This document shows, piece after piece, positions 61,067 to 62,192 of a stretch of DNA of 64,000 nt. A program made the translations under genes and the position numbers. Source of the stretch: an uncultured Clostridium sp. (GTDB lineage: Bacteria; Bacillota; Clostridia; TANB77; CAG-465). Positions within the stretch are counted from its first letter, which is position 1; the number at the start of each line of letters is the position of its first letter. Where the stretch lies: NCBI GenBank assembly GCA_947361355.1, contig CANAIR010000003.1, forward strand, positions 1,467 through 65,466, read 5' to 3'. Below the pieces are notes generated by a model, which was given only the letters and a program-made list of their open reading frames with translations, did no database searches and had not been told where the DNA came from.

Positions 61067-61134
61067 CTAAAATAGTAGTTAGTATGTTCTAGTGCTAACT
61101 ACTATTATTTTATGTAAAAAATATTTATATATAC

Positions 61135-61206
61135 AAAAAAGGAAGATAGTTCTAGATATCTTCCTACTTATTTAACTTTGAACTAATTATTGCAACATAT
61201 TGTTGT
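61135..61206 (-). ncRNA. predicted convergent antitoxin-like sRNA (module A)
   Basis: Runs from the consensus minus-strand promoter to the hairpin GGAAGATA/TATCTTCC (61141-64) followed by T6. It carries the complements of CTTATTTAA and GAACTAATT from the toxin translation initiation region. Confidence 0.5.
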
Positions 61207-61385
61207 ATTTATATTATAACATTTTTGGTTATAATTGTCAAATTTTTTTACTATAAAAAATATAACAATGATTAATTTATATACATATAAATAGTATTCT
61301 TATTAGTATAATTATACTTGATATACAAGTATAAAAATGTTATAATAAAAACACCTACTCTTTAGGTAGAAAGAGAGGTGTACTC

Positions 61386-61457
61386 ATGAGTGAAACCATT
61401 ATATTACTTATTCTATTAATAATTCTTATAAGAGAACTTAATAAAAAGAATAAGTAG
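61386..61457 (+). CDS. 23-aa hydrophobic peptide, putative type I toxin (module B)
   Basis: MSETIILLILLIILIRELNKKNK. The SD is AGAGGTG. A terminator lies at 61465-61499. Confidence 0.5.
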   Translation: MSETIILLILLIILIRELNKKNK

Positions 61458-61520
61458 CTTGAAAAGTAATAGAAGCGGTAACTTCTATTACTTATTTTAT
61501 GTAGAAAAATATATTATATA

Positions 61521-61591
61521 CAAAAAAGATAAGACAGCGGTAACCATCTTATCTTGTACTATGAGTTTTAACCATTATATAACAACGTTGT
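61521..61591 (-). ncRNA. predicted convergent antitoxin-like sRNA (module B)
   Basis: Promoter as described for the module. Hairpin AAGATAAGA/TCTTATCTT (61526-55) followed by a T-run. It carries the complements of GTACT-ATGAGT and AACCATTATAT from the toxin translation initiation region. Confidence 0.5.
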
Positions 61592-61637
61592 ATTTATATT
61601 ATAACATTTTTGGTTATACTTGTCAAACTTTTTATGC

Positions 61638-61666
61638 AAAAAATGTTGTAATAAAAAATACCTAGC
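61638..61666 (+). repeat. fragment of a sixth module (toxin -10 and 5' UTR only)
   Basis: AAAAATGTTGTAATAAAAAATACCTAGC is about 80% identical to AAAAATGTTATAATAAAAACACCTACTC. It is cut off next to the tRNA fragment. Confidence 0.45.
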
Positions 61667-61686
61667 ATAAGCTAAGTATCAATAAC

Positions 61687-61737
61687 TGGTGCCCCAGAAG
61701 CGATTCGAACGCCCGACCCACGGCTTAGAAGGCACTC
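61687..61737 (-). pseudogene. 3' fragment of a tRNA-Arg(TCT) gene (anticodon loop to CCA), att-site-like remnant
   Basis: The reverse complement reads ..CTTCTAA(anticodon loop)..GGGCG-TTCGAAT-CGCTT (T arm)-CTGGGGC-A-CCA. There is no matching 5' acceptor strand or D arm upstream. Confidence 0.65.
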
Positions 61738-61983
61738 ATTTAATATAAAAGTTCTATGTAAGCATTTTCAAAGACTTATGCTATATAATAAACAAATTAA
61801 TATATATAGTCCAATCATCTTAAATTATGATAATTATATCATAATAATTGTTATTATTCAATACTTTGTATGATAATTTTTCTATACATATAAATAATAT
61901 TAATTAGTACAATTATACTTGATGTATCAGTATAAAATGTTATAATAAAAACACCTACTCGGTAAGAGAGGAGGTGAGCTAAA

Positions 61984-62058
61984 TTGACCGACACAATAAT
62001 AATTCTATTTCTTATGCTTTTAATTATAATAGAGCTAAATAAAAGAAATAGAAAATAA
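61984..62058 (+). CDS. 24-aa hydrophobic peptide, putative type I toxin (module C, TTG start)
   Basis: (M)TDTIIILFLMLLIIIELNKRNRK. GGAGG SD 9 nt upstream. Terminator at 62064-62098. Confidence 0.45.
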   Translation: MTDTIIILFLMLLIIIELNKRNRK

Positions 62059-62120
62059 CACAAAGTAGTCTAGTTACAGCTAGACTACTATTATTTTATG
62101 CAAAATATTAATATATATAC

Positions 62121-62192
62121 AAAAAATGAGAAGATAGTTACAGCTATCTTCTCGAACTAAATTGACCGATTAATTGTACAACATCTTGTTGT
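62121..62192 (-). ncRNA. predicted convergent antitoxin-like sRNA (module C)
   Basis: Hairpin GAGAAGATAG/CTATCTTCTC (62128-53) followed by T6. It carries the complement of the 13-mer CTAAATTGACCGA, which spans the toxin start codon. Confidence 0.5.

Follow-up and report, generated by a model that had tools for sequence, protein, structure and literature searches.

Complementary loops of two separate terminators co-vary in candidate par-like type I toxin-antitoxin modules of an uncultured Clostridium and its relatives

Introduction

Why should two neighbouring terminator hairpins, belonging to two predicted convergent RNAs that do not overlap, carry the same loop sequence on one DNA strand? 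This question is raised by a series of small modules at the end of a 64,000-nt stretch of contig CANAIR010000003.1 (assembly GCA_947361355.1) from an uncultured Clostridium sp. This whole stretch is called the window here, and positions are counted from its first letter. Five copies of one module (A to E) occur within 60900-64000. On the + strand, the module is composed of a TG-extended promoter, a leader, an open reading frame (ORF) of 23-24 codons for a putative toxin, a hairpin T1, an AT-rich spacer of 32-38 nt and a hairpin T2. Located 3' of T2 are a copy of the toxin start-codon region, a small CAAC..GUUG hairpin and, on the - strand, the promoter of a small RNA (sRNA). T1 is the terminator-like hairpin of the toxin mRNA and T2 that of the convergent sRNA of ~70 nt, and the apexes of both carry the shared + strand repeats.

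A loop-loop contact between toxin mRNA and antitoxin RNA is known from the par locus, in which the kissing complex forms at the loop of a single shared bidirectional terminator (PMC7472228). An earlier note on this DNA proposed that the same logic is distributed here over two separate terminators, with loops that match within each module and differ between modules. We followed up this proposal in the window and in related genomes.

Loops match within modules and differ between them

The repeat shared by the two apexes is GTTCTAG in module A, GCGGTAAC in module B (positions in Table 1) and TAGTTACAGCTA in module C (62071-62082 and 62135-62146). All three coordinate pairs were letter-perfect when re-checked, and TTACAG forms the loop of both hairpins of module C, as had been noted. 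Within the window, the repeat of module B is found at its two apexes only. All five occurrences of TAGTTACAGCTA lie at hairpin apexes, in modules C, D and E; the latter two modules carry the module C loop. Cognate apexes of the window modules share 7-10 contiguous nt and non-cognate apexes at most 4, a match that exceeds chance.

In a terminator scan, 16 terminator-like sites were found in 3.3 kb, compared to 0.5 expected from shuffled sequences. The scan locates each repeat at the tip of a hairpin containing G+C. A T-run follows T1 on the + strand and T2 on the - strand, and the predicted ends of toxin mRNA and sRNA are 32-38 nt apart in the window modules, without overlap. Folding gave a probability of being unpaired of ~1.0 for the loop bases in both predicted RNAs.

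The remainder of the two RNAs would offer a second site of contact. According to minimum free energy (MFE) folds of modules A, B and C, a 5' stem-loop is predicted to cover the Shine-Dalgarno sequence; the leader segment CACCUACUC pairs with the Shine-Dalgarno region GAGAGGAGGUG. The predicted sRNA consists of a 5' hairpin, a single strand of ~25 nt and the terminator T2. In cofolds of the same three modules, an intermolecular duplex of 16-28 bp extends across the toxin start codon, its sequence differing from module to module. T1 and T2 remain intact hairpins with free loops in folds and cofolds alike. Loop duplexes average about -7 kcal/mol.

Loop complementarity is maintained through about two dozen loop sequences

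The earlier note had reasoned that further copies should keep the match if it is under constraint. We assembled 45 cassettes with both hairpins. They come from 16 genomes, all within one bacterial family, of which 79 genomes were searched. Thirty cassettes were collected by hand through BLAST over 400 genomes of the order, BLAST over the family and a pattern scan for the T2 stem that was blind to the loop. A covariance model (R1) of T1, spacer and T2 was built from 25 of the hand-collected cassettes and run on the 79 family genomes, yielding 15 new high-scoring cassettes, all with matching loops.

All 45 complete cassettes share 6-10 contiguous nt on the + strand at the apexes of T1 and T2, and the RNA loops are hence complementary throughout. 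This holds for ~24 loop sequences: GTTCTA, CGGTAA, TTACAG, TTCCAG, CTGGAA, TTACCG, CCCGCA, TTCCCG, CTATAA, CGATAA, TTTTCCC, CTGCAA, TTGCCA, CGCCAA, TTCCAAG, TTCCCAG, CGGCAA, TTCAAG, TTCCTAG, TTTGCC, TTCGCC, GACAAC, TTCACC and TTCCTC. So many classes imply more than 20 state changes on any tree, each of them in both hairpins. With apexes defined by hairpin geometry alone, all 13 loop-class representatives matched their own partner, and none of 20000 permutations of the partners reached 13.

For pair counting, T1 and the reverse complement of T2 were written into one alignment. The intermolecular helix has Watson-Crick pairs in 174 of 174 cells, all six pairs change on both sides, and 0 of 500 shuffles reach the observed values. 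Pairing falls from 92% to 30-45% when the partners are slid by 1-3 columns. For the stems within each hairpin, the paired share is only 91% and 88% of cells. The cores in this alignment were picked as shared strings, and the percentage paired in the intermolecular helix is thereby inflated; the geometry-defined permutation test and the set found by the covariance model are free of this bias.

Closely related cassettes illustrate the changes in step. Tandem copies in genome G044 are 84% identical outside the loops and have TTCCAG versus TTCCCG in both hairpins; two other cassettes have CTATAA versus CGATAA, again each in step in both hairpins. Two pairs of classes are reverse complements (TTCCAG/CTGGAA and CGGTAA/TTACCG), which indicates that the conserved property is complementarity and not a given sequence in a given RNA. 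The loops differ from their surroundings in GC content, which is 48% for the loops, 10% for the spacer and 26% for the module.

Chance as the source of the match was ruled out by the partner-permutation test and by the rarity of the repeats in the window. A duplicated hairpin, the refuting possibility raised at the outset, was ruled out as well: the T1 stems follow the toxin type (AGTAGTCTAG, TAGCACAAG, AATGACCTGTG) and most T2 stems read GAGAAGATAG, so that the two are unrelated and T2 is no copy of T1.

Clear divergence of the loops was seen only in two remnants in which both hairpins persist and the toxin gene, or the 5' part of it, is gone, namely L262 (TTCCAG versus CTCAAG) and L282 (ATTTCTGC versus TTCCCG). 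This is as predicted by a loss of constraint. Altogether, the maintenance of complementarity through ~24 changes constitutes strong comparative evidence, at the level of sequence, for a selected RNA loop-loop contact.

A proposed par-like module with two terminators

We consider it probable that the modules are par-like type I toxin-antitoxin pairs, in which the complementary terminator loops kiss and thereby supplement the start-codon duplex. A strong promoter would drive an mRNA of ~150 nt for a hydrophobic peptide of 23-24 amino acids, ending at T1 and with its Shine-Dalgarno sequence hidden in the 5' stem-loop, and the convergent consensus promoter would drive the ~70-nt sRNA ending at T2. 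The T1 loop of 6-8 nt of the toxin mRNA and the T2 loop of the sRNA would then form a reversible kissing complex that captures the partner, after which the distal start-codon duplex would form and block translation. Such a two-site pathway would be that of par RNA I/RNA II and of bsrG/SR4. We infer both the repression of the toxin by the sRNA and the place of the loop contact as first kinetic step.

The modules resemble par of the Enterococcus faecalis plasmid pAD1 (RNA I/Fst, RNA II) and the par-like loci of Firmicutes in several ways. The promoters converge, the small peptide is hydrophobic and its tail charged, and a 5' stem-loop (predicted here) conceals the Shine-Dalgarno sequence. In both, the sRNA owes its complementarity to the toxin translation start to direct repeats, and complementary terminator loops are where the first kissing contact is proposed or has been shown to occur (PMC7472228). 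In par and its described homologues, however, one bidirectional terminator renders the whole stem-loop complementary by construction, whereas here there are two separate terminators with unrelated stems, 32-50 nt apart across the cassettes and each trailed by a U-run, and the match is confined to the loops. Moreover, the peptides (21-30 amino acids) are shorter, have no Pfam match and lack the PXXXG and Trp features of Fst; those of modules A, B and C contain no Pro, Gly or Trp at all. What we describe is a module that would work like par while two par-defining features fail, the single bidirectional terminator and homology to Fst.

In bsrG/SR4 of Bacillus subtilis, it is likewise the antitoxin terminator loop that first meets a loop of the toxin mRNA. 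Binding drops 10-100 fold when this SR4 loop is mutated and recovers upon compensatory changes, and according to the authors loop-loop contacts require a second, distal site (PMC3834814). There, the transcripts overlap at their 3' ends and complementarity is automatic, and SR4 does not cover the start codon but acts mainly through mRNA decay together with an altered structure at the Shine-Dalgarno sequence. The antitoxins of SprA1/SprA1AS and SprA2/SprA2AS in Staphylococcus aureus are described as acting via a non-overlapping region that covers the toxin translation start (PMC6393315); these RNAs, too, overlap at their 3' ends. In the kissing complexes of plasmid copy-number control (ColE1 RNA I/RNA II, R1 CopA/CopT, pIP501 RNAIII/RNAII), complementary loops of 6-7 nt start the binding of the antisense RNA, and a distal site is needed for it to proceed (PMC3834814). 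Those are fully overlapping cis-antisense systems, in contrast to the isolated complementary island between non-overlapping RNAs found here.

A full-text literature search returned no paper on separate terminators with co-varying loops, an absence in the literature searched that is not proof. To our knowledge, no such pair has been described.

Overlapping transcripts are complementary by construction, and a terminator-loop contact in par and other type I systems can therefore be shown by mutagenesis only. The RNAs considered here do not overlap, so that their natural variation amounts to some two dozen rounds of mutation and compensatory mutation, and selection on the loop-loop contact itself, distinct from the start-codon duplex, becomes visible. 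The modules could thus serve as a clean natural model for the contribution of kissing loops to antisense recognition and to the insulation of paralogues. Two convergent terminators with identical apexes on one strand also provide a search rule for unannotated type I modules in uncultured gut Clostridia, and the analysis yields several new small-peptide toxin candidates.

Points against and alternative explanations

Several observations weigh against the proposed reading. In cassette L281 the toxin ORF is apparently intact and the sRNA promoter poor, and the loops are identical on the + strand at only 5 of 7 positions; at the RNA level, UUCACAU faces ACGUGAG with five Watson-Crick pairs, one U-G pair and one mismatch. 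Several loops may close by a U-G pair, leaving only 4 free bases. The YUNR U-turn, which promotes kissing in par, is not general: by eye, some loop classes contain it (CUGG in CUGGAA; CUAG in module A) and others, UUACAG/CUGUAA and CGGUAA/UUACCG, do not. Two cassettes of genome G033 share the loop TTCCAG and differ in their start-codon target sequences, from which it follows that the loop alone does not set specificity. Finally, we infer the existence of the RNAs, their ends and the toxicity of the peptides alike.

Among the alternatives, the one that survives best accepts that the loops pair and assigns them a task other than nucleation, namely to stabilize or lock the complex, to set partner specificity among paralogues or to protect the RNA 3' ends. 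The modules of one genome usually differ in their loops, as the contrast between cognate and non-cognate apexes in the window exemplifies, genome G045 has at least five loop classes, and the par RNA I-RNA II complex is also stabilizing (PMC7472228). Yet the two G033 cassettes show that insulation by the loop is incomplete, and in par and bsrG/SR4, where the pathway has been studied, binding begins with the terminator loops. Kinetics and stability are not separable by comparative data; weighing these points, we regard this alternative as unlikely.

As only the loops are complementary, their sequence is free to drift and does so in step in both hairpins, giving each module a loop of its own. On a more tentative reading, the loop pair might constitute a fast-evolving, portable address code that insulates paralogous modules and orphan antitoxin sRNAs within a genome, a possibility to which we give somewhat less than even weight. 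A chassis of T1, ~35-nt AT spacer and T2, with apexes 62-78 nt apart, may serve at least four unrelated peptide families, and the loops may diversify, sometimes by one-step inversion (TTCCAG to CTGGAA, CGGTAA to TTACCG), followed by the corresponding change in the partner loop.

It is very improbable that the loop identity stems from real transcript overlap, with the sRNA reading through T2 to the - face of T1, or the mRNA through T1 into T2, the hairpins thus fully antisense and the loop match a side effect or a feature of a long isoform. The scan did flag some hairpins as terminator-like on the opposite strand as well, namely T1 of modules C, D and E on the - strand and T2 of module A on the + strand. 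Read-through would nevertheless make T1 complementary to its own antisense copy and gives no reason for T2 to carry the T1 loop; moreover, nearly every cassette has a stretch of 5-8 U behind T2 when read in the sRNA sense, and the unrelated stems of T1 and T2 speak against overlap, too.

Least probable of all is a cause at the DNA or protein level. One such cause would be the site of a hairpin-binding enzyme (an IS200/IS605-type transposase or another recombinase), which we rejected for the many loop variants (~24), several per genome and a poor fit to the site of one enzyme, and for the wrong place of the hairpins in mid-module between convergent genes instead of at the ends. Another would be that gene conversion or template switching keeps the hairpins alike, with no selection for the RNAs to pair. 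A conversion tract would then have to equal exactly the six loop bases that are all that cassettes H, J, L and U share. Moreover, loops diverge after loss of the toxin gene, and one cassette has a U-G wobble at the RNA level. Template switching is able to rewrite hairpin loops, and two closing pairs, AG...CT, are also common to many cassettes, which are points in favour of such a cause.

Features of the window modules

The coordinates of the predicted features are compiled in Table 1. The sRNA promoters of modules A, B and C have the form TTGACA-17-TATAAT and agree with the consensus at 12 of 12 positions, and the toxin promoters, which face them, at 10-11 of 12 with a TG extension. Modules A, B and C encode hydrophobic peptides whose tail is charged. 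Module D has no T2 or sRNA of its own; module E is decayed, and its copy extends ~45 nt beyond the end of the window.

Table 1. Positions of the predicted features of modules A to E in the window.
Module	Feature	Position	Strand	Method
A	Toxin promoter TTGATG-17-TATAAT, TG-extended	60923..60951	+	consensus scan
A	5' stem-loop, predicted to sequester Shine-Dalgarno, ACCUACUCU...AGAGGAGGU	60958..60982	+	MFE fold
A	Toxin ORF, 24 amino acids, MAELIVVLFLMLLITIESNRRNSK	60992..61066	+	
A	T1, toxin mRNA terminator hairpin; loop GTTCTA 61086-61091, shared GTTCTAG 61086-61092	61071..61106	+	
A	T2, sRNA terminator hairpin; + strand GTTCTAG 61149-61155, sRNA loop UCUAGAAC	61140..61165	-	
A	sRNA body: 5' hairpin CAACA..UGUUG and single strand complementary to toxin start-codon region	61166..61206	-	fold, cofold
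A	sRNA promoter TTGACA-17-TATAAT, 12/12	61213..61241	-	consensus scan
B	Toxin promoter	61318..61346	+	consensus scan
B	Toxin ORF, 23 amino acids, MSETIILLILLIILIRELNKKNK	61386..61457	+	
B	T1; loop CGGTAA 61476-61481, shared GCGGTAAC 61475-61482	61464..61493	+	
B	T2; + strand GCGGTAAC 61537-61544, sRNA apex GUUACCGC	61526..61555	-	
B	sRNA promoter, 12/12	61598..61626	-	consensus scan
C	Toxin promoter	61919..61946	+	consensus scan
C	Toxin ORF, 24 amino acids, TTG start, MTDTIIILFLMLLIIIELNKRNRK	61984..62058	+	
C	T1; loop TTACAG 62074-62079	62064..62089	+	
C	T2; + strand TTACAG 62138-62143, sRNA loop CUGUAA	62128..62153	-	
C	sRNA promoter, 12/12	62199..62227	-	consensus scan
D	Toxin half only: promoter, ORF without Shine-Dalgarno 62384-62458, T1 62464-62489 (loop TTACAG 62474-62479)	62329..62489	+	
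E	T1; loop TTACAG 63886-63891; toxin gene decayed, without Shine-Dalgarno, frame runs on	63876..63901	+	
E	T2; + strand TTACAG 63949-63954	63939..63964	-	

Distribution and further candidates

Among 150 sampled genomes of the order, the covariance model matched 10 of 52 from this family and 0 of 98 from four other families. At least four types of peptide occur in the cassettes, the window type of 21-26 amino acids, a 29-amino-acid type MSIFINIANAIAHIINALCNLYRTICKRK, a 25-amino-acid type VDKFINLIEAIAKLINSVTRLIKSI and a second 29-amino-acid type MQNVTALIVSITALLTILFEIVKYFDNRH; the sRNA is longer in the 29-amino-acid modules (~150 nt). Five peptides, including the MSIFIN and VDKFIN types, gave no match in Pfam at E values up to 10. 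Further candidate small toxins with the same layout were observed at L236 (G045 C29), L264 (G012 C3), L276 (G045 C12), L174-L176 and other loci; the candidate types comprise peptides of 29 amino acids (MSIFINIANAIAHIINALCNLY.. and MQNVTALIVSITALLTILFEIVKYFDNRH), an amphipathic one of 25 amino acids (VDKFINLIEAIAKLINS..) and one of 22 amino acids (MDDLITFIGAITGLILAIKKHK).

The T1 and T2 apexes keep an almost fixed distance, 62-71 nt in 29 of the 30 hand-collected cassettes and 78 nt in one, and the spacer of these cassettes keeps TTATTTTATG after T1 and TATATACAAAAA before T2 across toxin types. Elsewhere in this family, hairpins with a stem of the T2 type, GAGAAGATAG...CTATCTTCTC, and unrelated loops act as general terminators, often in both directions, downstream of protein-coding genes (e.g. 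L204, L207, L219, L230, L233). Such terminators made up most hits of the pattern scan for the T2 stem; the stem type is thus not specific for the module.

A scan of positions 58000-64000 against Rfam returned no meaningful family, only chance matches resembling microRNAs or small nucleolar RNAs. The exact pattern of the toxin 5' untranslated region found two known relatives, chance matches and reverse-complement Clostridium terminators in GTDB genomes and nothing more, and no module in IMG/VR. BLAST against phage and plasmid sequences gave no match. The pattern TATAATAAAAGCACCTACTC also matches many Clostridium and phage contigs (L032, L033, L036, L039-L041, L165-L168; IMG/VR); these were rejected as toxin-antitoxin modules, being the reverse complement of a gene-trailing terminator hairpin, GCACTTACTTA...GAGTAGGTGC, with a T-run. 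A metagenome scan with a loose pattern gave, among the matches listed, one decayed remnant (L138), the rest being chance. On this metagenome contig the beginning of the toxin gene and the sRNA promoter region are directly fused, and two such decayed remnants lie in tandem.

Orphan sRNA genes, composed of promoter, sRNA body and T2 with no adjoining toxin gene or T1, were found as well, for instance L234 (G045 C9:5378), L235 (G045 C1:127079), L240 (G048 C56), L246/L247 (G059) and L222 (G008 C1). Some of their loops fit toxin mRNAs of the same genome, such as UUCCAG on G059 C100 and the CUGGAA loops of G059.

Within its own genome (1.74 Mb, 25% GC, 50 contigs) the module has no copy beyond the five of the window. 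Directly after module E, just past the end of the window, lies an intact tRNA-Arg(TCT) gene (equivalent to 64164-64240; L020 1905-1981), of which a ~47-nt copy of the 3' part is located at 61680-61726 after module B (region 61680-61737). By virtue of this gene and its partial copy, modules C, D and E are flanked, together with an IS200-like remnant and a few ORFs, by att-like direct repeats, an arrangement as in the scar of an integrated element, which it resembles.

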